From sequence record PZ445448.1: DNA of 64,000 bases. One strand, given 5' to 3'. A program made the position numbers and the translations under genes. Position 1 is the stretch's first letter; the number at the start of each line of letters is the position of its first letter. The notes under the pieces were generated by a model that was not told where the DNA came from, made no database searches, and was given only the letters and a program-made list of their open reading frames with translations. This DNA is from a phage. This document shows, in pieces, positions 8,691-62,734 of this stretch.

Positions 8691-8782
8691 AAAAAAAAAA
8701 AATTATTGACACGCTGCAAAATTCAAGTAAACTATACACAAAAGGCGGGAATGTTTCCCGCCAACACAAAGGAAAAAAGATC

Positions 8783-9178: not shown

Positions 9179-9180
9179 GT

Positions 9181-9228: not shown

Positions 9229-9257
9229 TCCCAGTTAAGCTAAAAGGAGGCTTGAAG

Positions 9258-9377
9258 ATGAGCACTACACGCCAGCACACAAAGGTAACTATTATCGTTT
9301 GCATCATTGGTTATATCCTGGCGCAAATGTTGATGGGTAGCGCCAACGGTGTCGCAAAATTTTTCTTAAACTTTTAA
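9258..9377 (+). CDS. small hydrophobic peptide (39 aa)
   Basis: AAAGGAGG SD 7 nt before ATG; single predicted TM helix; below ORF-track size cutoff. Confidence 0.45.
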   Translation: MSTTRQHTKVTIIVCIIGYILAQMLMGSANGVAKFFLNF

Positions 9378-9455
9378 TTGACAAGCTAACTTAGATCGGT
9401 ATACTAAACACATCAACGGGAAAACTTCCCAGAACACACAAAAGGAGAAAACACC

Positions 9456-9797
9456 ATGACCACTATGACCGCCGCAGAAAAAGCTATTCAGATCGCTGCC
9501 CTGAAAAAACAGATCGCAGACCTTGAGAATAAGATCGATAACTTTGAAATCGACGAGGACAAGTACGACGAAAACTATGATGAATGGTTAGACGAGATCT
9601 ACGGCGAAATTATGATCGGAAACATTTCTTTTCTTCCGTCGCGTATCCTCAAGGAGCTAGATCCTATCGCTTACCGCTGCGGATTTAGCGACTACATCGA
9701 CAGCCTGGATATTGAGGACGATGAAGAATACCAGGAATTACAGACAGAGTTGGAAGAAGCAAAAGAAGAGCTTGCGGAGCTGGAAGAAAACGAGTAA
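9456..9797 (+). CDS. hypothetical acidic coiled-coil protein
   Basis: AAAAGGAGAAAACACC-ATG; promoter and hairpin upstream. Confidence 0.55.
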   Translation: MTTMTAAEKAIQIAALKKQIADLENKIDNFEIDEDKYDENYDEWLDEIYGEIMIGNISFLPSRILKELDPIAYRCGFSDYIDSLDIEDDEEYQELQTELEEAKEELAELEENE

Positions 9798-9799
9798 GA

Positions 9800-9846
9800 T
9801 TATTTTTAGATGGCCTTGACTCCAGGGCCATCAATAAAGTAAACTT
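9800..9846 (+). repeat. 45-bp palindromic element copy 2
   Basis: sequence identity with 9181-9228. Confidence 0.65.
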
Positions 9847-9886
9847 TATACTGTTAACACTGAACTAATGCATAGGAGTTAAAACC

Positions 9887-10132
9887 ATGGCAGCACTAAT
9901 CACTAAATATTACGCCCCTACCAACACCAAAAGCGCCCGTATCATGGTAAAAGGCTTCGGACGTAAAAAGGTTTACACCTGGGATTATGCCTTAGACACG
10001 GAAGACAACTACACCAACGCGATGACAGATTTTATTAATGAGCTGAACACGCGGATCTTGACAAATTATAAAATTACCGATATTGCCTATATAGGGGAAG
10101 GCGGGATCTGTTTTGTCGGTATCGTCAAATAA
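9887..10132 (+). CDS. hypothetical protein
   Basis: AGGAGTTAAAACC-ATG. Confidence 0.55.
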   Translation: MAALITKYYAPTNTKSARIMVKGFGRKKVYTWDYALDTEDNYTNAMTDFINELNTRILTNYKITDIAYIGEGGICFVGIVK

Positions 10133-10208
10133 ACTGTTTTTTCGGTGGTCCTGGTAGCAGGGCCATCTATAAAGATAGTTTATCAATACAATGAAAGGAG
10201 AAAGTAAC

Positions 10209-10562
10209 ATGATCAGTGGGGCAAGTTTTATCATTGGCGCTATTGCTACGGCTTTAATTGTAAATAAGATCCAGGATAAAAAGGAAAGAGGAAGTACCGC
10301 CCTTGCAGAATATCCATTTTGGGCATTCAACGATAACGAAGATTATATTATAAAGTATAAAAATAAAGAAGGTGACCAAGTAACACCACGACCGATCCCG
10401 GCTTACAAAATGCAGGAAACACTATACCGCCTGGAGGCGGGTGGCGCAAAAATTGTAGACTTTTGGGGATACGACCACACAGATCAGGAAGTTATAAAGC
10501 GCCGTATCCGGGCTATTCAGGCCAATATTGAAGTTAGCAAGGGGGGAATATATGAAAATTAA
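10209..10562 (+). CDS. hypothetical membrane protein (start at MISGASF)
   Basis: AAAGGAGAAAGTAAC-ATG; N-terminal TM helix. Confidence 0.5.
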   Translation: MISGASFIIGAIATALIVNKIQDKKERGSTALAEYPFWAFNDNEDYIIKYKNKEGDQVTPRPIPAYKMQETLYRLEAGGAKIVDFWGYDHTDQEVIKRRIRAIQANIEVSKGGIYEN

Positions 10563-10749
10563 TTTCGAGAAAATTGTAAAGCGCCCTCATGATTCCGAAG
10601 AGCTGCCAGAACGCCGCCAGCGTAACAATAAACTGAATAAGCCAAAAAGGTTTGGGAAGATCTGGCGGAATCATTATGATCGTAAATTGCCGGGCCTACT
10701 TTTGGAACGTGAACGACAAGCGGAACGATACCGCCACAAAGACAAATAG
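10552..10749 (+). CDS. hypothetical small basic protein
   Basis: GGGGGAATAT-ATG; overlaps upstream stop. Confidence 0.45.
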   Translation: MKINFEKIVKRPHDSEELPERRQRNNKLNKPKRFGKIWRNHYDRKLPGLLLERERQAERYRHKDK

Positions 10750-10756
10750 CAACCAA

Positions 10757-10786
10757 CGCCCCGCCATTGTGCGGGGCTTTTTATTT
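10757..10786 (+). terminator. intrinsic terminator
   Basis: GCCCCGCCATTGTGCGGGGC followed by TTTTTATTT. Confidence 0.65.
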
Positions 10787-10966
10787 CTATCCTACGAATA
10801 GCGCCCCTGGTTGGCCCTGTAAGCGCCAAAAAGGCCCCCACCTATGCAATCGCCCCTTTAACCTGAAAACATCGCCCAGGGCCGTTTTATGGCGTTAAAA
10901 ATATCATTGACATCGTCAACAGGTTAGCTATACTAACCACATCAAAGAGAGAAAGGAGTAAACGCC

Positions 10967-11227
10967 ATGCGTAAATTAAAAAATTTTGATAAAGTTGATG
11001 TTATCCTGAATAATTTTTACTACTGCAACAACAAGGCTATTTGGTGGCGTGATAGTTCCACCGATAAAGTCAAAGCGCGCTTTCTTCAGGGGCACTGGCA
11101 AGGCCGCCCAGTGATTAAAATCATGGGGCAATTGGTAGCGTTTAAAAATTGCCGCCGTGTTGATGACGTTGAGGAGATTTTAAACATTTTGCGCCACAAT
11201 AATTTAAAAAATAGTGTTGACAAGTAA
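10967..11227 (+). CDS. hypothetical protein
   Basis: TTGACA..TATACT promoter; AAGGAGTAAACGCC-ATG. Confidence 0.55.
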   Translation: MRKLKNFDKVDVILNNFYYCNNKAIWWRDSSTDKVKARFLQGHWQGRPVIKIMGQLVAFKNCRRVDDVEEILNILRHNNLKNSVDK

Positions 11228-11244
11228 ATCTCAATAAGTATAAT
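11217..11244 (+). promoter_or_regulatory. sigma70 promoter TTGACA-N16-TATAAT
   Basis: consensus hexamers. Confidence 0.55.
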
Positions 11245-11301
11245 TAAACACACAGGCGGGAAAACTTCCCGCCACTAACAAAGAAAACAGGAGAAAATAT
11301 C

Positions 11302-11925
11302 ATGACCACCGTTAACATTACCACAGGTTACAATTTAGCTTTCGACGTGCTGACCGACGAACAAAAAGAAAAAGCCGTTGAAATGGTCCGCGAAAGAGAA
11401 GAACACAGCGGGGATAACTTTTTTGCAGAAAGTGTAATTGAAGACTATAAAGAATATATCTTTCCAGAGTATGGCCTTGAAGATACCGAAGTACATTGGT
11501 CCGGCTTTTGGTGCCAGGGCGACGGCGCATCAATCAGTGCGGAAAACGTGGATTTAGAAAAATTCTTGCGTAAAGTCAAGTCTCTGACTAAATTCCGCTC
11601 AATTCGTCACTTGTTCGGCACAATGCACGATGGCGAGCTATCCGCAAGTGTTGAGCGCGATCCATATAGCCGTTATAGTCACGAAAACACTGTAAGCGGG
11701 TACATCGATACTACATGGCTAGACCTGACCGCCAAACAAGAAAACAAAGTGGAAGACCTGGAAGAACTGATCACCGAGACGGTACGGGAGCTATCCCGCA
11801 AGGTTTACGTAGACCTGGAGGAGGCCTATCTAGAACAGTTCACCGCAGAAAACCTGATCGGCCTTATCGAGGCCAATGATTGGCGGTTTGATGTCGATGA
11901 ATATGGTGAGATGACTTTTTCATAA
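11302..11925 (+). CDS. hypothetical protein
   Basis: hairpin GGCGGGAAAACTTCCCGCC then AACAGGAGAAAATATC-ATG. Confidence 0.55.
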   Translation: MTTVNITTGYNLAFDVLTDEQKEKAVEMVREREEHSGDNFFAESVIEDYKEYIFPEYGLEDTEVHWSGFWCQGDGASISAENVDLEKFLRKVKSLTKFRSIRHLFGTMHDGELSASVERDPYSRYSHENTVSGYIDTTWLDLTAKQENKVEDLEELITETVRELSRKVYVDLEEAYLEQFTAENLIGLIEANDWRFDVDEYGEMTFS

Positions 11926-12015
11926 ATAAAGTGTTGCAATAACCTAAAAACCTGCTATATTAAAACTCAAGGGGGCAAGACGTTTGCCCCCACACAAAAC
12001 AAAGAGGAAAACATC

Positions 12016-12396
12016 ATGAAAAACACTACTAAAGCTATTGACACTGTTATGTTTAACCTGGTTACATTCCGTGAAGATATGAAAGATCTTCCACGTGAAA
12101 CAGTGTGCGATCACATTGAAAACTATCGCAAACTAATCAAAGAGTTGCCTTTAAAACGTGACCAGTATGCGGCTAACGCTATGCTTAACGCCATGATCAA
12201 AAAGATGATTCAGTGTGATTTAACTCTGGCCTATGATTATGCAGGTGGTCGTTTTGCAGTATACAATCAGCCCGTGCCTGGTATGAGCACCACCGAAGAA
12301 TTGCACGCGTTAAATCTGAAACAAGATGTATGGGATAACATGCCCCGCGTGGTGGTGTGGGCAGAAAGCGGAAAGATTTACGGCGATAATTTTTAA
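12016..12396 (+). CDS. hypothetical protein
   Basis: hairpin GGGGGCAAGACGTTTGCCCCC then AAGAGGAAAACATC-ATG. Confidence 0.55.
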   Translation: MKNTTKAIDTVMFNLVTFREDMKDLPRETVCDHIENYRKLIKELPLKRDQYAANAMLNAMIKKMIQCDLTLAYDYAGGRFAVYNQPVPGMSTTEELHALNLKQDVWDNMPRVVVWAESGKIYGDNF

Positions 12397-12460
12397 TCAG
12401 GTAACAGGCGGCATATTTGCCGCCTTATTGTTAAACAGAACTGCAAAAGAGGTACATAGA

Positions 12461-12832
12461 ATGGAATTTATTATTTTGGCTGTAGTAGTTGCCTTGTTCA
12501 ACGCCTGGATCGCTGGCAAGATAGGTAGATCCGCTTTTCTATGGTTTGTTATATCTATTTTCCTGGGAGTGGTTGCAACTATTGTATTGGTTATCCTTGC
12601 AATTGTTGACAAGGGCGATAATAGAAAGGGTAAAGTGTTTTCCGACCTGTATGACGCACAAACGTTTGTCAACGCCTATTATAGTGATCTTCCAGTCTCC
12701 CTACGCTGCAGCCTGGCACAACAGGTTTTTGATGAGGCTAAAACCAGAGACCAAGCCCATGAGATATGTTTAACTGAAGCGGATCGCCTATTTGAGAGGA
12801 ATAGAAAATATGTGGACCAGCCGTTTAAATAA
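12461..12832 (+). CDS. hypothetical membrane protein (start at MEFIILAV)
   Basis: terminator hairpin then AAGAGGTACATAGA-ATG; two hydrophobic segments. Confidence 0.5.
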   Translation: MEFIILAVVVALFNAWIAGKIGRSAFLWFVISIFLGVVATIVLVILAIVDKGDNRKGKVFSDLYDAQTFVNAYYSDLPVSLRCSLAQQVFDEAKTRDQAHEICLTEADRLFERNRKYVDQPFK

Positions 12833-12942
12833 CGCCACGTTAATTAATCCCTTTAGTGAAGATTTGAAGCCAGCCGCCTGGCGTGACGGATTCAATAACG
12901 AACGCTTTATTTTCAGGCCTGATCTTGAGGAATTTTATAACA

Positions 12943-13068
12943 ATGGATCGAACAACAGCGGAGATAATTTTTCTTGTGGTGTGCGTGGTGATAGGACTCC
13001 TGGGGGCCATTGTAAACCACGTCACTACTAACAGGAGGGAAGGGGGAGACGATGACAACCAAGGATAA
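12943..13068 (+). CDS. possible small TM peptide
   Basis: hydrophobic 41-aa ORF; competing overlapping ORF 12810-13031 in another frame. Confidence 0.25.
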   Translation: MDRTTAEIIFLVVCVVIGLLGAIVNHVTTNRREGGDDDNQG

Positions 13069-13170
13069 GCCATGCGCTGATAAGGTGCGCCGTGTTATGG
13101 TATGGCTTGAGATTATCGCCCTTGAAATATTGTTAGGCGTAGGGATGTACTTTATCGCTGTAAGTAACTA
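13052..13170 (+). CDS. small hydrophobic peptide (39 aa)
   Basis: GGGGGAG SD then ATG; followed by terminator. Confidence 0.4.
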
Positions 13171-13173
13171 AGA

Positions 13174-13203
13174 GCGGCCCCCGATCATGGGGGCCTATCT
13201 TTT
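13174..13203 (+). terminator. intrinsic terminator
   Basis: GGCCCCCGATCATGGGGGCC followed by TATCTTTT. Confidence 0.6.
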
Positions 13204-13309
13204 AAAAAATTTTTCTTCCGGGGTGTTGCAATCCGGTCCGGAATGTGGATAATAACAATCAACGGGGAGCTAATCCCCACCACCACAAAAACCAGAAAGG
13301 AGAAACAAA

Positions 13310-13510
13310 ATGAGCAACAATATCCGCGTTATTAACTTCAAAAAAGAAGAAAAAATTGCCGTGCTGATTGACGGTCAAGAAATCTTCAAGGGCGACTATG
13401 AAGATCATCAAACGGCGATTAGTATCACTCGCGTGATTGGTTATCATAATTTCTACCCCCAAGGCGCTGAGGCAGCAGTTAAACGAATCAAAGAGATTGT
13501 AGGCCTGTAA
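13310..13510 (+). CDS. hypothetical small protein
   Basis: hairpin GGGGAGCTAATCCCC then AAAGGAGAAACAAA-ATG. Confidence 0.55.
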   Translation: MSNNIRVINFKKEEKIAVLIDGQEIFKGDYEDHQTAISITRVIGYHNFYPQGAEAAVKRIKEIVGL

Positions 13511-13560
13511 AATTTATTTTTAGATGGCCTTGACTTCAGGGCCATCGATAAAGTAAATTT
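13511..13560 (+). repeat. 45-bp palindromic element copy 3
   Basis: sequence identity with 9181-9228. Confidence 0.65.
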
Positions 13561-13603
13561 AAACCCTGTTAAAATACCACGCAGTTAACAAGGAGTGATA
13601 GAC

Positions 13604-13903
13604 ATGTTTATCCAGGCTAATAATCTTTATTTCTTTGATGGTCAGATCGTAGATGGTGTGGAAGTGGAGATCACCGGGTGCCCTGGCGGTCAGGCTATGA
13701 CTTTTCGGAATAATGCCTTTGATGATTCTCATATCGTTATGAGAATGGAAGTTACGAAGCTGGACGACAAGAAAACACTTATTGACTATTCTGTGAAAGA
13801 TCATCCAGACTACCGCATGATCCATGGTGATTTGTGCATTGTTGACCGTGACAAGGTGGGCGGCATTGTGATCGCTATTGTGAACGATGTTTTCTCAAAC
13901 TAA
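13604..13903 (+). CDS. hypothetical protein (start at MFIQANN)
   Basis: AAGGAGTGATAGAC-ATG. Confidence 0.5.
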   Translation: MFIQANNLYFFDGQIVDGVEVEITGCPGGQAMTFRNNAFDDSHIVMRMEVTKLDDKKTLIDYSVKDHPDYRMIHGDLCIVDRDKVGGIVIAIVNDVFSN

Positions 13904-13920
13904 TTTCAGCAGGCGATTTT

Positions 13921-14271
13921 ATGAAAGTCAAACTATATTACCTTAATGAGCTTAACCCCCTTGCCCAGGTCCGCGCCCTAGCTAATACCTTGATTTGTGA
14001 GAAATCTGTATATTGTGTTGAGCTTAACGCCATGCGTGAACGTCTCAAAGGTGGTTACTTTGACATCCATGCTGCAATCAACGGCCTGAATATGGAATTT
14101 ATACGCTTACGTAACAGCCGCCGGAATCTGGCAAGAATGGAACAAGATCCGGCCCACCTTCGTAAGCTGGTTATTGAAAATCATCTGATGTTTAATGCCG
14201 AGGGTGATTATTACCATTTTCACCGCAAACGCTGGTACCGTGGCGGCAATACAGGCAAGAATGCAAAATAA
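13921..14271 (+). CDS. hypothetical protein
   Basis: ORF in array. Confidence 0.5.
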   Translation: MKVKLYYLNELNPLAQVRALANTLICEKSVYCVELNAMRERLKGGYFDIHAAINGLNMEFIRLRNSRRNLARMEQDPAHLRKLVIENHLMFNAEGDYYHFHRKRWYRGGNTGKNAK

Positions 14272-14308
14272 GGCCCCTAGCAGGGCCTGCAGCAATATAA
14301 TCACATAA

Positions 14309-14340
14309 AGGCCATGCGGTTGCATGGCCTTTATTATTTT
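14309..14340 (+). terminator. intrinsic terminator
   Basis: AGGCCATGCGGTTGCATGGCCT followed by TTATTATTTT. Confidence 0.65.
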
Positions 14341-14473
14341 GGCGTTACAACGGCATACGGGGCGCTTAAAAAATTTTTAAAGAAGTACTTGCATCATTCC
14401 CGACAATATGGATAATAAGAGTTGTCGAGGGGGAGGCCCCCAATCGTTGACCAGATAGATAGGAGTTAAAATC

Positions 14474-14758
14474 ATGGCTATTGTTACCGCTGGCGATGTA
14501 GTAGAAATGGAAGCAAAATACTTAAAAGCGGGTATGCACATCCTACGGAATGATCAAGAGTTATTATTAACGATGGTTGACTATAATCACGGCCAGGATT
14601 ATCCAAGCATCGACTACTTTTTTGAGTATGTTGATGAAGAGTTGAAAGAGGATGAGGCCTATTGCGGTGAGTTCTGCAACTTCTTTTGTCCTGATGAGGT
14701 TGTAAAGGTTATTTATCAACCTGGCGTAGCTTTCCCGCTGCACGCTATCAATAAATAA
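14474..14758 (+). CDS. hypothetical acidic protein
   Basis: hairpin GGGGGAGGCCCCC then AGGAGTTAAAATC-ATG. Confidence 0.55.
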   Translation: MAIVTAGDVVEMEAKYLKAGMHILRNDQELLLTMVDYNHGQDYPSIDYFFEYVDEELKEDEAYCGEFCNFFCPDEVVKVIYQPGVAFPLHAINK

Positions 14759-14813
14759 ACCTGGCGGGGCCGAAAAGGCCCCCAATTATGAAAATAAAGA
14801 GAGGCAAATCATC

Positions 14814-15047
14814 ATGATGGAACAAATTAAACGCGCCGAGGCTATTAATGGCAACGTGATCTATTTTGTCAGCAAAAACGAAAAAGGCGTACCATATGCG
14901 GCAGTAATAGTACAACCTGACGGCGATTATTGGTTTACTGTGTACGGCGCTTATTCTTTTGGGCGTCCAGTGCATGATAAAATTTTGAAAGTAGCGAACC
15001 CTACCGGGAAGAATATCACAGCAGAAAAATTTTTTGAAAATAGTTGA
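14814..15047 (+). CDS. hypothetical protein
   Basis: AAGAGAGGCAAATCATC-ATG. Confidence 0.5.
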   Translation: MMEQIKRAEAINGNVIYFVSKNEKGVPYAAVIVQPDGDYWFTVYGAYSFGRPVHDKILKVANPTGKNITAEKFFENS

Positions 15048-15122
15048 CATGACCATATAAGACTGTAATATATAAATCAAAGGGGGCAACTAACCCCACC
15101 AACTACAAAGAGGATAAAAATC

Positions 15123-15302
15123 ATGGCTATTATTGCAAAGACTGAGATCGTAGGCTTAGATTCTATTCTCCTCGCATATGAGGAAGCTATAGAAATGTAT
15201 GTGGTTTCCTATGGTGAGTATATCCGTGAATATAAATCTATTGATCTGGCTTTTGAATGTTATATCCGCCAGGTTAATAAAGCGTACGATGATTATCGTT
15301 AA
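15123..15302 (+). CDS. hypothetical small protein (59 aa)
   Basis: promoter, hairpin GGGGGCAACTAACCCC, AAGAGGATAAAAATC-ATG; below ORF-track size cutoff. Confidence 0.5.
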   Translation: MAIIAKTEIVGLDSILLAYEEAIEMYVVSYGEYIREYKSIDLAFECYIRQVNKAYDDYR

Positions 15303-15389
15303 AATAGTTTGACAACAGCCATCTTACAAAGCATAATACATAAGGCGGTGGAATGGTCCGCCACCTGGAACAAAGAAGAGGTAAACACC

Positions 15390-15635
15390 ATGAAAAGCAA
15401 TAAAGGTTATAACGGTTACAAAAACAAAACTCATTGGAATGTAAGCCTTTGGATTAATAACGATGAGTCATTGTACCGGTTGGCCCAAGGCTTTATTAAC
15501 GCCAATGCTAATCGTAATGATGCGGCGCGGGATATGATGCTTTTTCTGGAGCTAACCGGACAAGATAAGACCCCGGACGGCTTCAAGTACAGCACTACGG
15601 CGATCCGTGCCGCGATGGTTGGAATGAAACACTAA
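15390..15635 (+). CDS. hypothetical protein (start at MKSNKGY)
   Basis: promoter, hairpin GGCGGTGGAATGGTCCGCC, AAGAGGTAAACACC-ATG. Confidence 0.55.
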   Translation: MKSNKGYNGYKNKTHWNVSLWINNDESLYRLAQGFINANANRNDAARDMMLFLELTGQDKTPDGFKYSTTAIRAAMVGMKH

Positions 15636-15712
15636 AAGCACATAGCTGCCTTACCCTGGGGCTGTGGTAGCGGCCCCATGAATAAGGTTACTAACAGAAG
15701 AGAATAAACACC

Positions 15713-15817
15713 ATGAAACAGAAATTAATCGATGCAGTGATCTTGGTTATTGCCCTGGGTATTGGCCTGATTGCAACCATGTCTAATATGATCTTGTCTT
15801 CCAACGGTATCGGGTGA
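15713..15817 (+). CDS. small hydrophobic peptide (34 aa)
   Basis: AGAGAATAAACACC-ATG; single TM helix. Confidence 0.4.
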   Translation: MKQKLIDAVILVIALGIGLIATMSNMILSSNGIG

Positions 15818-15826
15818 GGTTGGCAA

Positions 15827-16042
15827 ATGATCACTAACAAAACAGGCAAAACGGAATTTTTACGCAACTTACAGATCGGCAAGCCTGAGATCTGGTACTG
15901 CACTAAAACACCACGTGACGAAATGAAAGACTTCACCGCCACGCTGCAACGGGTAAAGATATCTATCACGCAGAAAAAGGCCTTACTAGTGGTGGAAGGG
16001 GAGATCCCCCAAACCGTTGTTATAGTTGAGCGTACAGCATAG
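15827..16042 (+). CDS. hypothetical protein
   Basis: GGTGAGGTTGGCAA-ATG. Confidence 0.45.
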   Translation: MITNKTGKTEFLRNLQIGKPEIWYCTKTPRDEMKDFTATLQRVKISITQKKALLVVEGEIPQTVVIVERTA

Positions 16043-16133
16043 TTTAATTTATACAGATACCTGAAAATTAACCAACAAAGCATAAACAGGCGGTTACCGC
16101 CGCCTTAAACGTAGCAGAAAGAGGATAGACACA

Positions 16134-16418
16134 ATGAAAAAGATGATCGCAGTGGTTACCCTGGTTGTTGGACTTAATGCGCCTGTAATGGCTAAAGAGC
16201 TGGCAAAAGAGGTTAATCTAACGGATATTCATGCCGTCAATCAAATCGGGGTTACTTATCGCTTATGCCTTGCCGCTAAAACTTTTAAGGACGGCACAAC
16301 AGAGTACTACGGATTCGAGGGTATCCGGTGCGGTGAGCTTGCTCGCGACCTTAAGGAAGATCCAGACCTGGAGGATCTGCCCATAACCGTGAACGGAAAA
16401 ACTTACGTGAACCGTTAA
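16134..16418 (+). CDS. hypothetical secreted protein with signal peptide
   Basis: hairpin GGCGGTTACCGCCGCC, AGAAAGAGGATAGACACA-ATG; N-terminus MKKMIAVVTLVVGLNAPVMA. Confidence 0.55.
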   Translation: MKKMIAVVTLVVGLNAPVMAKELAKEVNLTDIHAVNQIGVTYRLCLAAKTFKDGTTEYYGFEGIRCGELARDLKEDPDLEDLPITVNGKTYVNR

Positions 16419-16420
16419 CC

Positions 16421-16555
16421 ATGAGAAAGATAATTATTACCATGGGGATCGTGGCGGCAATGTTGGCGATCTTTCCCTTTATGGTTAGGTATGTGCTGAT
16501 TAATGTTGTCCTGGTAGTCAGCGATCTGGTGTTATATATTAACTCATTGTTTTAG
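16421..16555 (+). CDS. small hydrophobic peptide (44 aa)
   Basis: ATG 2 nt after upstream stop; strongly hydrophobic. Confidence 0.35.
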   Translation: MRKIIITMGIVAAMLAIFPFMVRYVLINVVLVVSDLVLYINSLF

Positions 16556-16563
16556 GCGCGATA

Positions 16564-16755
16564 ATGACAGCGGAAGAAGTTAAAAAAGTACTGGCGGTAC
16601 TGCGTTATCATAATCATTGCAAGGTGAAGAATGATCCTGATTATCTTGATTCATCCCTTGAAGAGGATACACTACAAGCCATAAGCAACATGCAAGAATT
16701 GCTTAAGCGTATGACAGAGAAAAACCGACCGGACTACATAGGGGGTAAAATATGA
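16564..16755 (+). CDS. hypothetical protein
   Basis: ORF in array. Confidence 0.45.
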   Translation: MTAEEVKKVLAVLRYHNHCKVKNDPDYLDSSLEEDTLQAISNMQELLKRMTEKNRPDYIGGKI

Positions 16756-17063
16756 TCGCTATTACGCCAACCGTTTTAGATTGGTATCGGCAACGCATAG
16801 CGCCTCCGCTGGCTATCTTCAAAGATGCGGAAGCAAAACAACGCCGGATCTCAATACATGAGATCATCAACCTTAACGCTGGAGGCACACCATACCGCCC
16901 AGGACCTGGCCGTGAGATGGACAATACATTGGCGATCCTGAAGATACGCCGTAAACGGTCCTCCCTTACGCTGGATTCATTACACACAATGCAGTCCCCG
17001 TTCCAGGTGACTGGGAAACGGATCGCCAGGTCCTGGACAAAGGCCAATGACCGGACCGTATAA
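16752..17063 (+). CDS. hypothetical protein
   Basis: ATGA overlap with upstream gene. Confidence 0.45.
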   Translation: MIAITPTVLDWYRQRIAPPLAIFKDAEAKQRRISIHEIINLNAGGTPYRPGPGREMDNTLAILKIRRKRSSLTLDSLHTMQSPFQVTGKRIARSWTKANDRTV

Positions 17064-17148
17064 ATAAAAAGTGTTTTGGTACTGATTTTGGGGTTGACTT
17101 GTTCGGCCCCTTTTGCTATTCTTATTAAACGGGCGGCACTTGGGAACA

Positions 17149-17173
17149 GGGGGAGACAATCACCAGGCCTGCC
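17149..17173 (-). repeat. inverted copy of the 25-bp core at 7525-7549
   Basis: reverse complement GGCAGGCCTGGTGATTGTCTCCCCC. Confidence 0.6.
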
Positions 17174-17281
17174 TGTCATATAAGAACTATAAAAACCGTT
17201 GACATCTGCCAGGGGGTGGGGTAACATTTATCTTGAAGGGGCAAAGGTGCCCACACAACAACCAGAAGAGAGGAAAACACT

Positions 17282-17554
17282 ATGTCAAGCTGGATTAATC
17301 AAGAAGTCGAATCACGTTTTAATGCTATTTGGGATCTCATCGAAAAAGAAGACGGCACATCAAGCCCCTACCTCAACAATTTGGAATTCCATTTTGTGGA
17401 AGCGATGAACGCAGAACATGATCACGAAGGTGGTGCGGACGAGTTCGCTAAAGGGTATGGCTTCAACAATGCCAACGAAATGATCGAGGCGGTTGTACTC
17501 CAGGCTGAGGAAGATTATCAATTAAAAACGCTTGAATTCTGCCGCCGTAAGTAA
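17282..17554 (+). CDS. hypothetical acidic protein
   Basis: TTGACA promoter, hairpin, AGAGAGGAAAACACT-ATG. Confidence 0.55.
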   Translation: MSSWINQEVESRFNAIWDLIEKEDGTSSPYLNNLEFHFVEAMNAEHDHEGGADEFAKGYGFNNANEMIEAVVLQAEEDYQLKTLEFCRRK

Positions 17555-17614
17555 TAAGATAATGACACGGGCCGGGAGGCCCACTAATCAGAACCACACA
17601 AAGAGGTAAACATC

Positions 17615-17878
17615 ATGAAACGTCTTGATCAGCTTAAACTAGTTCAGTACATGGCCTACAAAGTTCTTGAAGTCCAAAAAGGTAGCAAAAAAGAGGTTTG
17701 CGAGAAAGCATATAAGATCTTTACCCGTAAAAAAGATGATTGGATGTTACGCCAGACCAAAAAAGCCGATATCCTGGGATACCTGGAAGAAGAGATCCGA
17801 CTTGAAGAACAAGAAGAGATCCGCCGTAGTGAGGCAGATTATCAGGCAGCTTGGGAAAACTGGATGAGCAACAAATAA
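17615..17878 (+). CDS. hypothetical protein
   Basis: hairpin GGGCCGGGAGGCCC then AAAGAGGTAAACATC-ATG. Confidence 0.55.
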   Translation: MKRLDQLKLVQYMAYKVLEVQKGSKKEVCEKAYKIFTRKKDDWMLRQTKKADILGYLEEEIRLEEQEEIRRSEADYQAAWENWMSNK

Positions 17879-18022
17879 TACAACAAGTTACATGGTCAGG
17901 GGCAATAAAGCCCCTTGATCACATAAAAATTATGCTATCCCTGGTTGACAGGGATCGGCAGTTTTGCTATATTCTTTTTTGAAGGGAAGTTGTAAGAAAA
18001 TTAACTAAGAGGTAAAAACACC

Positions 18023-18442
18023 ATGAACATTAAATCTAATAATCCGGCATATAGCTTTGATAACGCTTTTTGTCACGGTCCGGCGGCGAAAGGATTCGAA
18101 ATCGATGGTAAACTAATTATTGTCAATGTTGACGGGGAAGAGGTTGCAGTATATCCGGTGGCAGACGTAAAAAGCCGTTTACAATGCCGCATGGATGTTA
18201 CCGCCTATCAGCTTGATCCGGTCCGCATAGTTGCCCTGGTCCTGGAAGAAGAAATTAAAGCCATGCACCATAGCAACAGATTTATTGGTGACGCGCAGGA
18301 TAATATGAAAGTATGCCGCCATAAAGTTAATGAAGTGCTTAAAGAGTACGGCTATAAAGATCTTATGATCAAACGTGAGGAAAAATTCCGCTACCGTAAC
18401 GACCTGGCAAATCGGATTTTTGAAATATACGAATCATTATAA
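18023..18442 (+). CDS. hypothetical protein
   Basis: TTGACA..TATATT promoter; AAGAGGTAAAAACACC-ATG. Confidence 0.55.
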   Translation: MNIKSNNPAYSFDNAFCHGPAAKGFEIDGKLIIVNVDGEEVAVYPVADVKSRLQCRMDVTAYQLDPVRIVALVLEEEIKAMHHSNRFIGDAQDNMKVCRHKVNEVLKEYGYKDLMIKREEKFRYRNDLANRIFEIYESL

Positions 18443-18461
18443 TTTTTTAACTGAATTATCA

Positions 18462-18486
18462 AGGGGCTTAGGCCCCTTTCTTTTTG
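18462..18486 (+). terminator. intrinsic terminator closing the plus-strand array
   Basis: AGGGGCTTAGGCCCCT followed by TTCTTTTTG. Confidence 0.65.
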
Positions 18487-18489
18487 TCT

Positions 18490-20950
18490 GCTCTTCCTCC
18501 TACCACAAACGGCCCAGCCTGGCAAGTGGAATAATTGACTAGCCATCAATCCCACACACTGTACAAATATACATGGAAAATAACTATTGCATAATTTTTC
18601 ATTGTGTGGTAGCAGGTCCATTTTTACCCGTTTTCTCTCTCAAAATTGCACGTAATGCCGCTATTGCACAAAATTTAACCTGATGCACATCTTCAATATC
18701 TTGTCAACAACTAAAAATCTTTATAAGTCATACACTTACACACTCACAAAAGCGTGTTCTACGTGAAAAATCGAGTATAACTATAGCCGCCAGATCTCAG
18801 AATTTACGTACGCTCACCATTCTATAGTCTGCTAAGTATTTATTCCAACCATGGAATAACGGAATAGTCAATACCTGCATAAAATAATTATTCGTGTAAA
18901 CTGCATAACATAAATCAGCTCAGGTGTCAACATTTTTCGTAAACAGTCCGAAATTGTCACGGTGAGTTATCATAAACAGAGAAATATTTAGTCGTCTAAT
19001 GTTTACTGTACATTACTATACTGACTGGAATCATTAGATGACTAAGAGAAAGATAAGAAATAATTAACAATACAATTATTTTATCTGTAACAATAAGGCA
19101 ACTATGCAAACGAATGGCATGGCGCGACGGAGTCGCGACATAATATAAAAGCAGTAACCATCACCCCCGTGATAGTTTGTCTGCAAACTATTAATCAGAT
19201 CATAGTTGCCTTGTATTTAGTTAATCATGACATAACAAGCAAGGCAACTATAGATCTTCTAATAGTTGCCCTGCTTTTATATTATGTCATAGAAACACCC
19301 GAAGGGGTGACCAAAGGTCACCTGGCATGGCCAGTGAAAGATTATTAACTTGTTAATTGTTAACTTGCTAATTGTTTTCATGCAAACGAATGTCATGGCT
19401 TATCCTATCTGTGTAAACAGTCAAGGTGTAAACTATCCAGGCGTAAACAATCTATACGTGAACAGTGAAACATGAAATAATAACAGTCGTTATTGTGTCG
19501 AAAGTGTATAAGGTGTCATAGTATGTCAGACAAGTTTTTCTCCTCTTTGTCAAGTGCTGCATGAAAAATTTACAAGCTTGTATGGTAGCATTTTTGCTGC
19601 CCTGTTTACATTCAGTTGTGTATGTATAACCCTTGTTGTGTGGGCGTTTAGACGTCTAGACGGTTGGAAGTCCGCAGGTTAATATCTAATCTATTGGCTG
19701 CTAACTATATCCCACACAAATAGTAAGAAATATAATTGTTATGTGCGTAAACAGTAACTCATGTTATCAATCCCTGTATGTATCGCCAGTGGTGCGCATA
19801 ATGGGTATTATGTTAAATTGCCCGTAATGATAACTATTCTCACAATGATAGGTATTCTCATTCACTCCCACAAGATAGGTTGCAAATGTTGTGCCACTGT
19901 GTGAACGGCCTCACCTATTAATTTGCCTCACTGCCTCGATATTTGAGAATTGTTATAAGAATGAGAAGTATTCCCATTTCGTCCGCCTGGCAGCACTCCA
20001 GTCGCTACCGCTCATGACAGGGCAGAACTAGACCCTCTTCAGATATTTCTGGCTGACTCTTCAGGCCTGTGTGGGAAAAGCCAACCTCTCCGGCGGCGGG
20101 GAGGGGTTTGTCAGGAAAATTGCAGGTCAATTAAAAAATTTACGTGGTATATGAAGCGCTCTTCAGGTAAGGCATGTATTATGGGATGAAACCCTCTTCA
20201 GGCAATGATATTTGTGGGTGTGATATTTGCTGGAAAGCCAGATATGACGGGACTCCCGGCGGGGCAGGGGTAGTACAGACAGGGGAAATATGGAGGATGT
20301 AGTTGGGGGAGTTGATCAAACAGGTAGAGTATGGAATATGTTACAAGTATGTTAAATATGGAGGGTGGATATCTGTAGGATTTATGTGTAAAATCAAAGA
20401 CTTAAGTGGTGTTGTGGTATTTTCTATAAATAATTCAAGTTTAATAGGTAATATTTGTCTCTATCCGCTTTGTGTGGTAAACAAATTCAGATGGTGTTGG
20501 TTTACAAGTGTATACATAATATACAAATTAAAGATACAAGAAACCCCCCTCCCCCTTCGGCTACCATTCACCTTTTCCTCTGACTGGTACTTAAACACTT
20601 ATTCAGACTCTTCAGGTTATCACCCATATATCATATGGCAGTGACTGGTGTCCTCCGGCCCCTCTTTCGTCACCCGTCCGCTTCGCCATGCTAATGCCAT
20701 AGCCAATGGTTCGGTTGTTCACCCTGTTCACTCAGGTGTATCTCCATACCCCTTCAAACCGAAGAGAACAGAAAACCCGAATTACTCGGTAAAAGAAAAG
20801 AGAAGAACTTAATTTTATCAGGATAGGCAAGAATGTCAAGGCATGACTGCTCACTAAACAAGCAAACAGTCATGTGTGGGAGGTAAGTGATTGTGGTGGT
20901 AGGAAATTTAGTTGAAAGATGTGTTATAGGTGCTCCCAGCACTTTAGCCG
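18490..20950. repeat. 2.4-kb gene-free repeat-dense region (GTAAACAG iterons, AAGGCAACTAT sites, CTCTTCAGG repeats)
   Basis: no ORF with SD on either strand; multiple short repeat families. Confidence 0.6.
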
Positions 20951-20966
20951 GGTAGCTAATTGTGTG

Positions 20967-21182
20967 TCAGTCCAGTGGTTCATCACCTACTTCACTGAAA
21001 TCAATGTTCATGGTCTCCTCCCAACCATCAATCTCAGCACCAGAGTAGAGATCTTTAGGACTTACTCCCAAAGCATCAGCAACAGAGTCCATATTTAACA
21101 CCTCTGGCAGGTATGATTTATCGAATTCAAGGTAAATCAGGCCACGAGTATTGTCAGCTCCACCAAATATTTCTATCTTCAT
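20967..21182 (-). CDS. hypothetical small acidic protein
   Basis: AGAGGAGATTTC-ATG on minus strand. Confidence 0.45.
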   Translation of the reverse strand: MKIEIFGGADNTRGLIYLEFDKSYLPEVLNMDSVADALGVSPKDLYSGAEIDGWEETMNIDFSEVGDEPLD

Positions 21183-21303
21183 GAAATCTCCTCTGGAAAT
21201 GAGAGTGTGAACAGGGTTTTATACGTTCCGATGCACAGGAATTATGCACGTTTTCCTCTTCAGGCCATGCTTTAGCATGAGGAACCTGTGTGGGCTCGGT
21301 GCT

Positions 21304-21516
21304 TCATAGTCTACCACCCCTGAACTCTTCGTGCTCAGGCATAATAGAGAACCAGATATCTACGATGTCTTCCCACGTTAGGTCATCAGCCTCAGGATCT
21401 ACCTGGAGCAAAGATGGAGAATCTTCAGAATCGAAGTTTTCCTCTTGCACTGGCTCAGTCAAGGGACATATAGTCACTCCTTTGGATGTCTCTTCAGATG
21501 CATGCGTGTTTATCAT
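21304..21516 (-). CDS. hypothetical acidic protein (internal start of a longer ORF)
   Basis: acidic C-terminal half; upstream half has atypical composition. Confidence 0.3.
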   Translation of the reverse strand: MINTHASEETSKGVTICPLTEPVQEENFDSEDSPSLLQVDPEADDLTWEDIVDIWFSIMPEHEEFRGGRL

Positions 21517-21876
21517 GTTCCACCCGTGAGTATTCCGGCAACAGCCGCTATGGACGTAATGATCATCAGAATAACCACCAAAACCTCTGACAATGTTTTC
21601 ATTGTGTATCCCATATTCTCCAAACGATGTGTGGATACTATCACTGGAGCGGCAATGTGTCAACAGAAACGCCGCGAGGGTTTGGTTAAAATCCGAGCGT
21701 ATGGTGATTTGGGTCAAAACGGACGTGCGTTCTCGCTACGCTCGAAATATAGAGTTGTTTGTAGGAAGCTCTTAAACGCTCTGTAACGAGATTATCTGTC
21801 CAAGGTATGCAATCGTGCACCAGATAAAGAAAAGGACGCCACAGAGCGTCCTAGGTGTCTTAAATTTGATATTTTG

Positions 21877-22176
21877 TTATACCCATGAGGGTTTATCAAG
21901 GTTGGAGTAGCTGAAAGGTGTCAAAAGGTGATTGTCAAAATCTCTCAAACTATCCAGATCTTTCTCCTCGTCCTGACACCATCTGTGCCTACATTTATTG
22001 TTGTAGTGCATAGAATGCATAGCGTTCTGCAACTTAACAGGTACAAGTGATTCAGGAGTAGATAGTATTGTTGGGTATGCCAGAACCACCTCAAACAGTG
22101 GAAACACATCGAAACTAAAGTCTACCTCTGCAGAGGTTGATGGCATGTAAGAGTATTTAGCCGCCTTTGTAGACAT
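21877..22176 (-). CDS. hypothetical protein (start at MSTKAAKY)
   Basis: GAGGTGG SD then ATG. Confidence 0.4.
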   Translation of the reverse strand: MSTKAAKYSYMPSTSAEVDFSFDVFPLFEVVLAYPTILSTPESLVPVKLQNAMHSMHYNNKCRHRWCQDEEKDLDSLRDFDNHLLTPFSYSNLDKPSWV

Positions 22177-22184
22177 AATCCACC

Positions 22185-22511
22185 TCACACAGGTTTGATA
22201 ATACCTTTACCGAATAATTCTTCGTATCTAATCTTATCCGGATCCCACTCCTGGATAATTTCGAAGACAATATCCAACCCAGGGATAATCACTTCTCCAG
22301 TGTCAAGTTTGGCAAGAACAAAACCAGAAGGCTGAATGGTTTCCCAGTTGCGCCGATTGGAATAGAAGACCTCGAAAATATCGCCGACCTTTATCTGTTG
22401 ATCAAGATGTTCAAGATTCTCTTTCATATAGACGCAGCGGATTTTTCGTGCAGGCCATAGACCACCTGCATCACGTTCATTTAGCTCTTTTACAGTAATC
22501 GGTATACCCAT
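22185..22511 (-). CDS. hypothetical protein
   Basis: ORF in minus-strand array. Confidence 0.45.
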   Translation of the reverse strand: MGIPITVKELNERDAGGLWPARKIRCVYMKENLEHLDQQIKVGDIFEVFYSNRRNWETIQPSGFVLAKLDTGEVIIPGLDIVFEIIQEWDPDKIRYEELFGKGIIKPV

Positions 22512-22532
22512 CTCAAATCTCCTTCATAGATA

Positions 22533-22560
22533 GTAAAAAGAGGGGCCCAAGCCCCCCTCT
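22533..22560 (-). terminator. intrinsic terminator (minus strand)
   Basis: AGAGGGGGGCTTGGGCCCCTCT followed by TTTTTA on the minus strand. Confidence 0.55.
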
Positions 22561-22566
22561 TTGTCA

Positions 22567-22872
22567 TTATTCTACAGAGCGTTTGAACAGAATGTCTGCC
22601 TCAGACATGTGCTCAACCTCTTCTTCGATTTTAGCGCGACGTTTTTCAGCCTCATAGCGAATATCGAACTCGGTAGCCACCAGAGATTTGATGAATTTAG
22701 GAGAATACAGGTGATCCTGCTTCTCAACGAGAATGATATCCTTAATGGCATCTTTCAGATCTTTAATCTGAAGTTGGAGTTCTACCAGTTCTTCGATTGT
22801 TTTGCGAAGGCGATCACGCTCTGCAGTGTCAGAAGGAAGAGAGGTGAACAGTTCAACTTTAGATTTAGCCAT
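22567..22872 (-). CDS. hypothetical coiled-coil protein
   Basis: ORF with charged heptad-like sequence. Confidence 0.45.
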   Translation of the reverse strand: MAKSKVELFTSLPSDTAERDRLRKTIEELVELQLQIKDLKDAIKDIILVEKQDHLYSPKFIKSLVATEFDIRYEAEKRRAKIEEEVEHMSEADILFKRSVE

Positions 22873-22900
22873 AGTAAGAGTCTCCTTATGTTGTTTTAAA

Positions 22901-23152
22901 TTAACGTTCTACAAAAATACCGTTCAGTTCAATAACCAGGAATTTCTGGTCTTCACTATCGTCTCGTGCCAGCACCTCACAGACGTATCGGTCATCCCCA
23001 TCATCATCGCAGTCAAATACAAGACTGAGGACTTTATCATGGTAAACCTTCGCAACTACCGCCTCGTAAGTATTGCCGATTGTGAATCCAAGATAATCTC
23101 CGATGCATTTGACAACAACATGGTCTCCAGCATTTAAGTCAATCTTCGTCAT
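22901..23152 (-). CDS. hypothetical protein (start at MTKIDLN)
   Basis: AAGGAGCGCAGTA-ATG. Confidence 0.45.
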   Translation of the reverse strand: MTKIDLNAGDHVVVKCIGDYLGFTIGNTYEAVVAKVYHDKVLSLVFDCDDDGDDRYVCEVLARDDSEDQKFLVIELNGIFVER

Positions 23153-23307
23153 TACTGCGCTCCTTGGGTAATAATACTGTATGTAAAACTTTAACCAGAG
23201 ATGTGAATAACGCCCCAAAACACACCGATAGCGCTAAAACAGACAAGGCCATCATTAAAGCTTCAGTAAAATCAGTCATTCCTCACCTCTTGTTAGTCAC
23301 TATACTA

Positions 23308-23571
23308 TCATTTATCCTTGTCGTCAAGAACTTTTTTAAATCTTTCAGGGATATCTCCCGTTCTTAGATAGTTCATGACCTCGCAAGGTTCCCACTTGAA
23401 TTTCTTACAGAGCAGGGCGGCTGAGATTGTTTCATTGCGAAAAGAAAGGATATTAATATCCCACTCTGAGAACCCCAACTTCCGAAGGGTAGCTACAGAA
23501 ATCCTCACCGCAACCCAGCAGCAAAAACATGCAACAAACGCCACTGCTACAACCCACATCAGGATGTTCAT
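23308..23571 (-). CDS. hypothetical membrane protein
   Basis: N-terminal TM helix. Confidence 0.45.
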   Translation of the reverse strand: MNILMWVVAVAFVACFCCWVAVRISVATLRKLGFSEWDINILSFRNETISAALLCKKFKWEPCEVMNYLRTGDIPERFKKVLDDKDK

Positions 23572-23580
23572 ATAAGCACC

Positions 23581-23664
23581 TTACTGAAATACAAGACACA
23601 GTGTTAAGGTTACTGACCAGCAAATAATTAACAGTGCCGTTGCAACCTTGGCAAGATTTATCAT
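23581..23664 (-). CDS. small hydrophobic peptide (27 aa)
   Basis: ATGA overlap with upstream stop; AGAGG SD. Confidence 0.35.
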   Translation of the reverse strand: MINLAKVATALLIICWSVTLTLCLVFQ

Positions 23665-23948
23665 AGTGCCTCTAAGATTTCATATCCTTCGGGTCGGAAT
23701 ACAAGCCACTCCGTGGCTCCGTTTGGTCGATACGCTTTATACAGAACAACCTGGTCTCGGCACATGCACATGGCTACATAGTTTTCATCCACACCTGCAG
23801 CCTGCATTGCATCTTCTTCTCCGGCAACTGCTTTGCTTACAACTTCCTTGGTAGGCAGGTGTGCGATCAGCTCGTCACCATCATTAATTCCAAAATGGCT
23901 GAGTTCGCCGTTGGTATCTTTAATCTTAATCTTAACCAGATCTTTCAT
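23661..23948 (-). CDS. hypothetical protein
   Basis: ORF in array. Confidence 0.45.
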   Translation of the reverse strand: MKDLVKIKIKDTNGELSHFGINDGDELIAHLPTKEVVSKAVAGEEDAMQAAGVDENYVAMCMCRDQVVLYKAYRPNGATEWLVFRPEGYEILEAL

Positions 23949-62159: not shown

Positions 62160-62163
62160 AATT

Positions 62164-62733: not shown

Positions 62734-62734
62734 A

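Follow-up and report, generated by a model that had tools for sequence, protein, structure and literature searches.

Small genes for predicted single-helix membrane peptides in an rV5-like Vequintavirus: four already catalogued and one missed by annotation

The subject of this study is a set of five small hydrophobic open reading frames (ORFs), here labeled c1 to c5, in a phage DNA sequence of 64,000 nucleotides (record PZ445448.1; the whole stretch is referred to below as the window). Four of these ORFs are on the plus strand, namely c1 (9258-9377, 39 amino acids, MSTTRQHTKVTIIVCIIGYILAQMLMGSANGVAKFFLNF), c2 (13052-13171, 39 amino acids, MTTKDKPCADKVRRVMVWLEIIALEILLGVGMYFIAVSN), c3 (15713-15817, 34 amino acids, MKQKLIDAVILVIALGIGLIATMSNMILSSNGIG) and c4 (16421-16555, 44 amino acids, MRKIIITMGIVAAMLAIFPFMVRYVLINVVLVVSDLVLYINSLF), and one, c5, is on the minus strand (23581-23664, 27 amino acids, MINLAKVATALLIICWSVTLTLCLVFQ). 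An initial sequence-only reading of the window had pointed out all five, and all are present where it placed them and with the lengths it gave, save that c2 ends at 13171, one base beyond the reported 13170. The region 9000-17000 aligns over its full length, at 98% nucleotide identity, with Escherichia phage MaxTheCat and other Vequintavirus (rV5-like) genomes, and is matched by 302 phage records; by this sequence measure, the window is that of an rV5-like Vequintavirus of E. coli. The authors of the rV5 genome described the corresponding block as "88 mainly small ORFs" (Kropinski et al. 2013, Virol J 10:76).

The hydrophobic character of the five predicted peptides was readily reproduced: the best 19-residue Kyte-Doolittle window scores 2.08-2.56 in each, and each contains a strongly hydrophobic core of 19-22 residues. 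Hydrophobicity by itself is not rare in this region, given that 9 of 73 small ATG ORFs reach a Kyte-Doolittle score of at least 2.0. Nevertheless, ORFs of this kind are distributed unevenly, with equally hydrophobic peptides encoded by 5 of the 8 coding-strand ATG ORFs (25-59 amino acids) that fill gaps between genes, compared to 4 of 50 among those overlapping longer genes (Fisher p = 0.0013). Each of c1-c5 occupies such a gap between same-strand genes. The description of these peptides as single helices fits c1, c2, c3 and c5, whereas c4 contains two hydrophobic stretches. AlphaFold2 models c4 as one continuous helix (residues 2-43; predicted local distance difference test score, pLDDT, 95), and c4 might instead form a membrane hairpin.

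The translation start signals differ among the five ORFs. We measured the strength of the Shine-Dalgarno (SD) sequence as the energy of its duplex with the anti-SD, with 36 accepted genes (median -7.1 kcal/mol) and 568 ATGs in the region as reference sets. By this measure, the statement that most of the ORFs have a credible SD holds only in part. The signals of c1 (AAGGAGG, 7 nucleotides before the ATG; -11.6 kcal/mol) and c2 (-10.8 kcal/mol) are strong, both falling in the top 1% of the 568 ATGs and exceeding those of 35 of the 36 accepted genes. The SD of c5 is moderate (-5.8 kcal/mol), within the top 11% of ATGs and at the weaker quartile of the accepted genes; that of c3 is weak (-2.9 kcal/mol), and c4 has none (+0.3 kcal/mol). 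In another allele of c3 found among related phages, the SD is GAGGG.

The arrangement of the ORFs relative to their neighbors is tight. The SD of the gene that follows c3, with its ATG at 15827, contains the TGA stop of c3. The ATG of c4 is located 2 nucleotides past the stop of an upstream gene for a 94-amino-acid protein with a signal-peptide-like N-terminus, and c4 ends 8 nucleotides before the next ATG. The ATG of c5 overlaps the TGA of the upstream gene (ATGA), and its TAA is part of the SD of the following gene (TAAGGTG), whose ATG is 9 nucleotides downstream. Distances to the neighboring start or stop codons are thus 0-9 nucleotides for c3, c4 and c5, and all five ORFs are packed like genes of a polycistronic unit.

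The sequence-only reading had presented these ORFs as unannotated, which is true of c5 but applies to c1-c4 only with respect to the 60-amino-acid ORF track that accompanied the sequence. In the database and in print, c1-c4 are annotated coding sequences with matches in PHROGs: c1 corresponds to rV5 ORF193/gp193 (39 amino acids), MaxTheCat bas57_0104 and PHROG 16391 (E = 1.8e-31); c2 to ORF181/gp181 (39 amino acids), bas57_0114 and PHROG 13629 (E = 7.6e-32); c3 to ORF173/gp173 (46 amino acids), bas57_0122 and PHROG 14631 (E = 8.1e-23); and c4 to ORF170/gp170 (44 amino acids), bas57_0125 and PHROG 16005 (E = 1.5e-26). The PHROG matches cover the whole profile in each case, and all four families are labeled "unknown function". 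Each of the four rV5 proteins has been listed as a "membrane protein, 1 TMD", that is, with one transmembrane domain (Kropinski et al. 2013, Virol J 10:76, Table S3). The exact c1-c4 sequences are present in NCBI and UniRef as hypothetical or uncharacterized Vequintavirus proteins, and coding sequences are found at the matching positions of the gene order in both the 2006 rV5 record and MaxTheCat. Judged by sequence and synteny, c1-c4 are direct orthologs of rV5 gp193, gp181, gp173 and gp170. No material difference separates c1, c2 and c4 from gp193, gp181 and gp170, respectively, whereas gp173 is annotated 12 codons longer upstream than the 34-amino-acid core common to all relatives of c3. 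Annotation of these genes is uneven across the group: the records of isim, inoa and APCEc02 lack the c3 call that those of MaxTheCat and Murica contain, c4 is uncalled in ECP26 and ECP2303, and c2 is uncalled in phiWec189. The initial observation holds up, but most of it was already known: four of the five ORFs are published proteins with one transmembrane domain.

The exception is c5, which is without a counterpart in the rV5 annotation. A search against PHROGs yielded no match for c5, none of the 20 annotated records that we inspected contains an annotation at this position, where each leaves an 89-nucleotide gap, and four sequence variants of the peptide were all absent from a collection of 15 billion proteins. 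Common gene callers usually apply a minimum length of about 90 nucleotides. At 84 nucleotides, c5 probably falls below this limit, which would be the simplest reason why it has never been called; an ORF of similar kind but 90 nucleotides (29 amino acids) in length, at 28630-28719 on the minus strand, is already catalogued.

Conservation of the five ORFs was assessed in up to 22 loci, mostly from GenBank phage records, with 5 related loci contributed by IMG/VR. The start, frame and length are retained in every locus, the length of each indel is a multiple of 3, and stop codons are exchanged in place among TAA, TGA and TAG. Specifically, c1 encodes 39 amino acids in 10 of the 10 loci that carry it, with the ATG moved by one codon in one contig, and was found in 112 phage records. 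The length of c2 is 39-40 amino acids in 15 of 15 loci (one in-frame insertion of 3 nucleotides), with TAA or TGA stops at one site, and this ORF was found in 118 records. The third ORF, c3, is exactly 34 amino acids long in all 17 loci, including three contigs (L005-L007) from more distant relatives. In the case of c4, 14 of 14 loci encode 43-46 amino acids, with in-frame indels only; c4 is present in the distant contig L005, and its other matches are in phages of about 150 kb, one of them with a record name beginning Phapecoctavirus, such that homologs were found only in Vequintavirus and Phapecoctavirus-like phages. The length of c5 is 27 amino acids in 22 of 22 loci, which comprise 11 peptide variants, with TAA and TGA stops and a single switch of the start codon from ATG to GTG. 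A full-length c5 was detected with tblastn in 117 records, the same 117 in which the locus was detected with blastn, so that the ORF is intact in every one of them.

The pattern of substitutions is that expected of protein-coding genes. For all five ORFs, the pairwise ratio of nonsynonymous to synonymous differences (pN/pS) takes its lowest value in the proposed frame (0.30 for c1, 0.24 for c2, 0.40 for c3, 0.51 for c4 and 0.37 for c5); the neighboring accepted genes range from 0.06 to 0.54. In a test in which each variable site was counted once against a neutral expectation with the same mix of transitions and transversions, an excess of synonymous changes was observed only in the proposed frame (p = 0.037 for c1, 0.0012 for c2, 0.0023 for c3 and 0.052 for c4). 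For c5, a modest sample of 26 substitution events in the 22 loci includes 14 synonymous ones, compared to 7.5 expected (p = 0.0065), and no excess is apparent in the other two frames (p = 0.39 and 0.66). When the five first-round tests are pooled, 100 synonymous events are observed versus 63 expected (p = 1.7e-7). Some changes in frame 0 of c3 and c4 were counted as 'stop' events, an artefact of the comparison of single changes with the consensus codon; the real translations contain no internal stops. We also considered, and rejected, the possibility that the conserved elements are structured RNAs: Rfam contains no family overlapping any of the five ORFs, and their predicted folding is no more stable than that of shuffled sequence (z from -0.5 to +1.35; -0.5 for c5). 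Altogether, we are highly confident that c1-c3 are genes, and the same is very probably true of c4 and c5; c5, in particular, is a credible new gene for a 27-amino-acid peptide, present throughout the genus and systematically missed.

These genes do not all appear to be indispensable. In isim and Murica, c4 is cleanly deleted, with the flanking genes left adjacent, and in ECP26 and phiWec189, c1 is missing together with the 342-nucleotide gene that follows it. Because of these losses in some relatives, at least c1 and c4 are dispensable accessory genes. Two alleles are known for each of c3 and c4, and in both cases it is one half of the peptide that distinguishes them; such a pattern suggests that recombination has occurred inside these very short genes.

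The features of the peptides themselves provide some indications as to how they might act. The N-terminal tails contain 1-5 lysine or arginine residues (net charge +1 to +3), and the net charge of the C-terminal tails is 0 to +1. Under the positive-inside rule, these basic N-terminal tails predict an N-in orientation, with a cytoplasmic N-terminus, one helix across the inner membrane and a periplasmic tail of 0-11 residues, or up to 22 in c4. Beyond this common plan, each peptide has its own pattern of conservation. The C-terminal tail of c1, AKFFL(N/D)F, is conserved. In c2, a basic N-terminal tail that varies is followed by a transmembrane (TM) core, VWLEIIALEILLGVGMYFI, with two embedded glutamates, that shows no change in any of the 15 loci, the most divergent contig among them. 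The two N-terminal alleles of c3 (MKQKLIDAV... and MLEKIFTVV...) are joined to a C-terminal motif, ATM(A/S)N(M/V/I)(I/V)(L/I)SS(N/H), that is kept across genera, so that the periplasm-proximal end is the conserved part. In c4, T7, G9, P19, S34 and D35 are invariant, S34 and D35 forming an adjacent pair, and the two alleles differ at the C-terminus. Finally, c5 is essentially a bare TM helix. Because conservation is concentrated in TM and membrane-proximal residues, specific helix-helix contacts would be favored over bulk damage to the membrane.

Taking these lines of evidence into account, we propose, with a probability of about 0.7, that the five ORFs are real protein-coding genes for bitopic membrane peptides of 27-44 amino acids that probably act by helix-helix contact with a larger membrane protein. 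Known small membrane-protein regulators of bacteria act through contacts of this type. Under this model, each peptide would make a sequence-specific contact with a membrane protein that could belong to the host or be encoded next door in the phage genome, and the outcome might be host takeover, exclusion of other phages or remodeling of the envelope. Several observations weigh against this proposal. T-rich sequence readily yields hydrophobic peptides, neither c3 nor c4 is preceded by a good SD in this window, and selection on c1-c5 is weaker than that on neighboring genes with a pN/pS of 0.06-0.27. For c4, the signature of selection is marginal (p = 0.052), with a pN/pS of 0.51 in frame compared to 0.59 in the +1 frame. 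The lack of stop codons is, by itself, uninformative when substitutions are few, the probability of observing no stop under neutrality being about 0.3-0.4. The literature on rV5 and Vequintavirus that we searched contains no transcriptome, ribosome-profiling, mass-spectrometry or functional data on these ORFs, nor an accessory-gene screen that covers them. As for the mode of action, which we propose by analogy, no match to a protein family, structure or defense system supplies a function.

The context of transcription is consistent with expression early in infection. A near-consensus sigma-70 promoter (9378-9405, plus strand; TTGACA-16-TATACT, 11 of 12 matches) begins immediately past the c1 stop codon. 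The promoter that follows gp193 in rV5 is listed as P192, with a sequence that includes the end of gp193 (Kropinski et al. 2013, Table S4), and because the equivalent of P192 abuts the c1 stop, c1 is the last gene of its transcription unit. Similarly, a Rho-independent terminator (GGCCCCCGATCATGGGGGCC followed by a T-rich tail; 13176-13195, plus strand), with an 8-base-pair stem that includes 7 GC pairs, is located 4 nucleotides after the stop of c2. Its rV5 equivalent is t181 (-16.7 kcal/mol; Kropinski et al. 2013, Table S4), and because this terminator adjoins c2, c2 is likewise the last gene of its unit. The unit that contains c5 is headed by a promoter at 24946-24918 on the minus strand, equivalent to rV5 P150. 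There are many sigma-70-type promoters in the region, and the late-promoter motif of rV5 is found only in the region of structural genes. From this distribution, it is reasonable to infer that expression is early or dependent on the host polymerase, and the location of c1-c5 in tightly packed, sigma-70-headed operons would fit early or accessory genes read by the host RNA polymerase.

Two repeated elements were observed in the same part of the window. A 51-nucleotide intergenic repeat, TAAGTTTATTTTTAGATGGCCTTGAC.CCAGGGCCATCAATAAAGTAAACT, is present on the plus strand at 9176-9226, 9795-9845, 10130-10180 and 13509-13559, in copies that are 67-96% identical. In three of the four copies, the repeat begins at a gene's stop codon; the copies lie 11-45 nucleotides upstream of the next start, and one of them is directly upstream of c1. 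The repeat contains a GATGGCC/GGCCATC hairpin, with a promoter-like match, TTGAC-N18-TAAACT, across the loop; there is no T-run after the hairpin, and the rV5 table of promoters and terminators does not list this repeat. A second repeat of about 38 nucleotides, TAAACACA..GGCGGGAA..TTCCCGCC..ACAAA, is found at 8733-8770, 9405-9442 and 11245-11282 (plus strand), directly past the -10 box of strong sigma-70 promoters. By its sequence and position, it looks like a conserved stem-loop in the 5' untranslated region that is common to several early transcripts.

Searches for a family or function yielded almost exclusively negative results. Comparison of c1-c5 with Pfam, NCBIfam, PADLOC and the sequences of the PDB detected nothing apart from a similarity, below threshold, between c4 and DUF7396; none of seven small peptides had a match in PADLOC. 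Holin models from Pfam, NCBIfam and PHROGs did not match any of c1-c5, and the type I toxin models of Pfam and NCBIfam gave no match at E <=1. The score of c4 against DUF7396 (PF24129), 16.1 bits, is below the Pfam gathering threshold of 27, and 9 of 14 members of the c4 family match weakly (best E = 0.0042). In this alignment, residues 2-43 of c4 correspond to positions 3-44 of the 46 in the profile (DUF7396/phrog_3595, 46 amino acids), and the family itself is described as of "unknown function". An exhaustive search of 1.84 billion proteins with the c4 family profile retrieved no more than 3 cluster representatives, each belonging to the phage lineage of c4 itself, which rules out a wider family. 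The UniRef label 'DUF3096 domain-containing' attached to one c4 variant was not reproduced by a Pfam scan.

Three other explanations have to be weighed against the model of peptides that bind larger membrane proteins. Some of the ORFs, mainly c5, c4 and c3, might be fortuitous frames in non-coding spacers, where the DNA is kept for the ribosome-binding sites of the neighbors or for RNA elements. The weak or missing SD of c3 and c4, the plausibility of chance avoidance of stops at this divergence (P ~0.3-0.4), the 4 clearly spurious overlapping frames out of 50 that also encode hydrophobic peptides, and the fact that no pipeline has ever called c5 could all be accommodated in this way. What makes this explanation very improbable is that the synonymous excess is confined to the proposed frame for every candidate, that all indels are in frame, and that starts are either retained or exchanged for a valid start, with c5 intact in 117 of 117 loci and c3 remaining 34 amino acids long across genera despite a swapped N-terminal half. 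Conservation for the sake of an RNA element receives no support from Rfam or from folding stability (z -0.5 to +1.35), and the enrichment of hydrophobic ORFs among the coding-strand gap-fillers (p = 0.0013) is not accounted for either. Also quite improbable is the possibility that c4 and c5 serve mainly as translational-coupling relays that hand ribosomes to the downstream gene, with the peptide itself idle. The geometry of both ORFs would suit such a role, c5 starting in an ATGA overlap and ending inside the downstream SD 9 nucleotides before the next ATG, and c4, without an SD, starting 2 nucleotides past the upstream stop and ending 8 nucleotides before the next ATG. Moreover, both evolve faster than their neighbors (0.32 events per site for c5 compared to 0.21-0.23). 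However, an open frame would suffice for a relay, yet amino acid changes are fewer than expected and conservative (hydrophobic residues stay hydrophobic), and c4 contains the invariant polar or special residues T7, G9, P19, S34 and D35. Furthermore, the other genes in these operons are joined directly, with no such spacers, and in isim and Murica the genes that flanked c4 remain adjacent after its loss.

An unlikely but more substantial alternative is that the peptides act on the membrane itself, in the manner of holins, antiholins, pinholins, viroporins or type I toxins, oligomerizing to depolarize or permeabilize it and so to time lysis or shut off the host. In size and composition, the peptides resemble the one-TM type I toxins TisB, ShoB, DinQ and Hok (19-50 amino acids); the TM segment of c2 carries two conserved glutamates, and c2 lies two genes after a protein with two transmembrane domains that is called 'putative holin' in the BASEL annotation, and c5 is barely more than a TM helix. 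Against such an activity, hidden Markov models (HMMs) of holins and toxins in Pfam, NCBIfam, PHROGs and PADLOC give no match, the rV5 lysin gp89 and gp129, the holin proposed by the rV5 authors, are encoded elsewhere, and c1-c5 are without the charged C-terminal tail that is usual for holins. The promoters, too, are of the sigma-70 type rather than the late motif, and a membrane-killing peptide made early would hurt the phage. We therefore favor genes for peptides that would bind other membrane proteins over all three alternatives.

The genes around c5 are also small, and the next two downstream encode predicted membrane proteins. The upstream gene (23661-23948, minus strand), with a stop that overlaps the start of c5, encodes 95 amino acids (PHROG 12794, function unknown), is confined to the same 117 records as c5 with at least 95.8% amino acid identity, so that a search through this neighbor led to no copy of c5 outside the genus, and shows strong purifying selection (p = 1e-16). 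In the rV5 record DQ832317, the equivalent of 23661-23948 (15621-15891) is split into the overlapping ORF153 and ORF154; DQ832317 differs here by 1 nucleotide in length from every other genome, probably through a frameshift or a sequencing error in the 2006 sequence. Downstream of c5, the gene at 23308-23571 (minus strand) encodes 87 amino acids with an N-terminal TM segment (MNILMWVVAVAFVACFCCWVAV...; PHROG 13956), and the one at 23139-23279 (minus strand) encodes a further small TM protein of 46 amino acids, the ortholog of rV5 gp156 ('membrane protein, 1 TMD'; PHROG 16755), such that c5 and these two proteins are three membrane proteins in succession. All of the ten flanking genes that were compared with PHROG and Pfam are of "unknown function".

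The five ORFs are not the full set of small TM ORFs in this part of the window, as the initial list might be taken to imply: four comparable ones had been omitted, all on the minus strand and all already catalogued as hypothetical proteins. In addition to the 46-amino-acid protein at 23139-23279, these are a 33-amino-acid peptide at 21513-21614 (29 amino acids from the second ATG), which matches MaxTheCat bas57_0135 and PHROG 34195, and two conserved hydrophobic ORFs, at 26348-26449 (33 amino acids) and at 28630-28719 (29 amino acids). A match of the peptide at 21513-21614 to the holin_phiLC3 model is at the level of chance (E = 0.08; 13 bits compared to 39.7). The ORF at 28630-28719 has relatives, in the same cluster at 90% identity, in records labeled Escherichia coli, with contigs of up to 5.2 Mb. 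A far-reaching reading of this neighborhood, which we put forward as tentative and rather doubtful, is that c5 is a never-annotated TM micro-protein found throughout Vequintavirus, translated by coupling between two conserved genes, that would form a complex with the 87- and 46-amino-acid proteins to re-tune a machine of the host inner membrane, with at least nine single-TM peptides of up to 46 residues serving as a toolkit for the host membrane.

Several other observations were made in the course of the comparison. The plus-strand genes, which extend to about 18.4 kb, and the minus-strand genes, which begin at about 20.9 kb, converge on an ORF-free stretch of lower GC content. This meeting zone of the two gene blocks (18500-20900) is ORF-poor, has a GC content of 38%, and corresponds to the rV5 region with 'no observable ORFs'; scattered small ORFs are annotated there in some records, and repeat_regions in isim. 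The gene at 15390-15635 (plus strand) has nucleotide matches of 80-87%, at about 15394-15629, in JP4, Sharanji, vB_Ec-M-J and PGT2. The first three are unrelated large or jumbo phages of E. coli or Salmonella (350-380 kb) and PGT2 is a 43-kb phage, and the occurrence of this gene in unrelated phages suggests recent horizontal exchange of a single gene. A cluster of seven tRNA genes is located at 62085-62897 (plus strand), where the ARAGORN call at 62554-62652 is of undetermined identity, with a four-base anticodon (atcc). Approximately 18-24 records with accessions MG0656xx are labeled as Campylobacter jejuni phages but share 94-96% identity with this region of an E. coli Vequintavirus, and their host labels look doubtful.

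Among known systems, one parallel is with small regulators of the bacterial inner membrane, such as AcrZ (with its partner AcrB), MgrB (PhoQ), MgtS (MgtA), KdpF and CydX, which are 29-49 amino acids long. Regulators of the AcrZ, MgrB and MgtS type resemble c1-c5 in size, in the single TM helix and in the short basic N-terminus, and the TM-focused conservation of c1-c5 would be as expected for helix-helix binding by analogy with them. They differ in that c1-c5 are phage-encoded and have no sequence similarity to them in Pfam or NCBIfam. The type I toxins (TisB, ShoB, DinQ, Ibs, Ldr, Hok) are likewise hydrophobic single-helix peptides of 19-50 amino acids, and c5, with 27, is similar in size to DinQ and ShoB. 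However, these toxins are encoded in stand-alone loci with an antisense RNA, whereas c1-c5 are embedded and translationally coupled in phage operons, and neither an HMM match nor a structured RNA signal was detected for the five ORFs, although antisense RNAs of an undescribed kind might be encoded there. The early membrane proteins of T-even phages (Imm, Sp, Ac) are, like c1-c5, small and encoded by a large virulent myovirus, amid its early or accessory genes; Imm, Sp and typical holins are longer than c1-c5, and no homology was detected. With regard to phage holins and antiholins, the ortholog of rV5 gp183, a neighbor in this region, is the protein labeled 'putative holin', but c1-c5 are not beside an endolysin gene, and they lack a charged C-terminal tail (net charge 0 to +1). 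In light of these parallels, it is plausible, by analogy, that the peptides target the membrane machinery of the host.

The advance reported here is incremental, because phages are already known to encode small membrane proteins and no new mechanism is revealed. For the annotation record, the implication is that every Vequintavirus record we inspected lacks a conserved 27-amino-acid gene, c5, and that several other small genes are called inconsistently. The rV5-like phages are widely used as candidates for biocontrol and phage therapy, and carry a block of about 88 genes, mainly small ORFs, without assigned functions. Conserved single-helix peptides encoded in this block are cheap and easy probes for membrane targets in the host, and the clearest leads among those described here are c2, with its invariant TM helix and two glutamates, and c3, which is conserved across genera.

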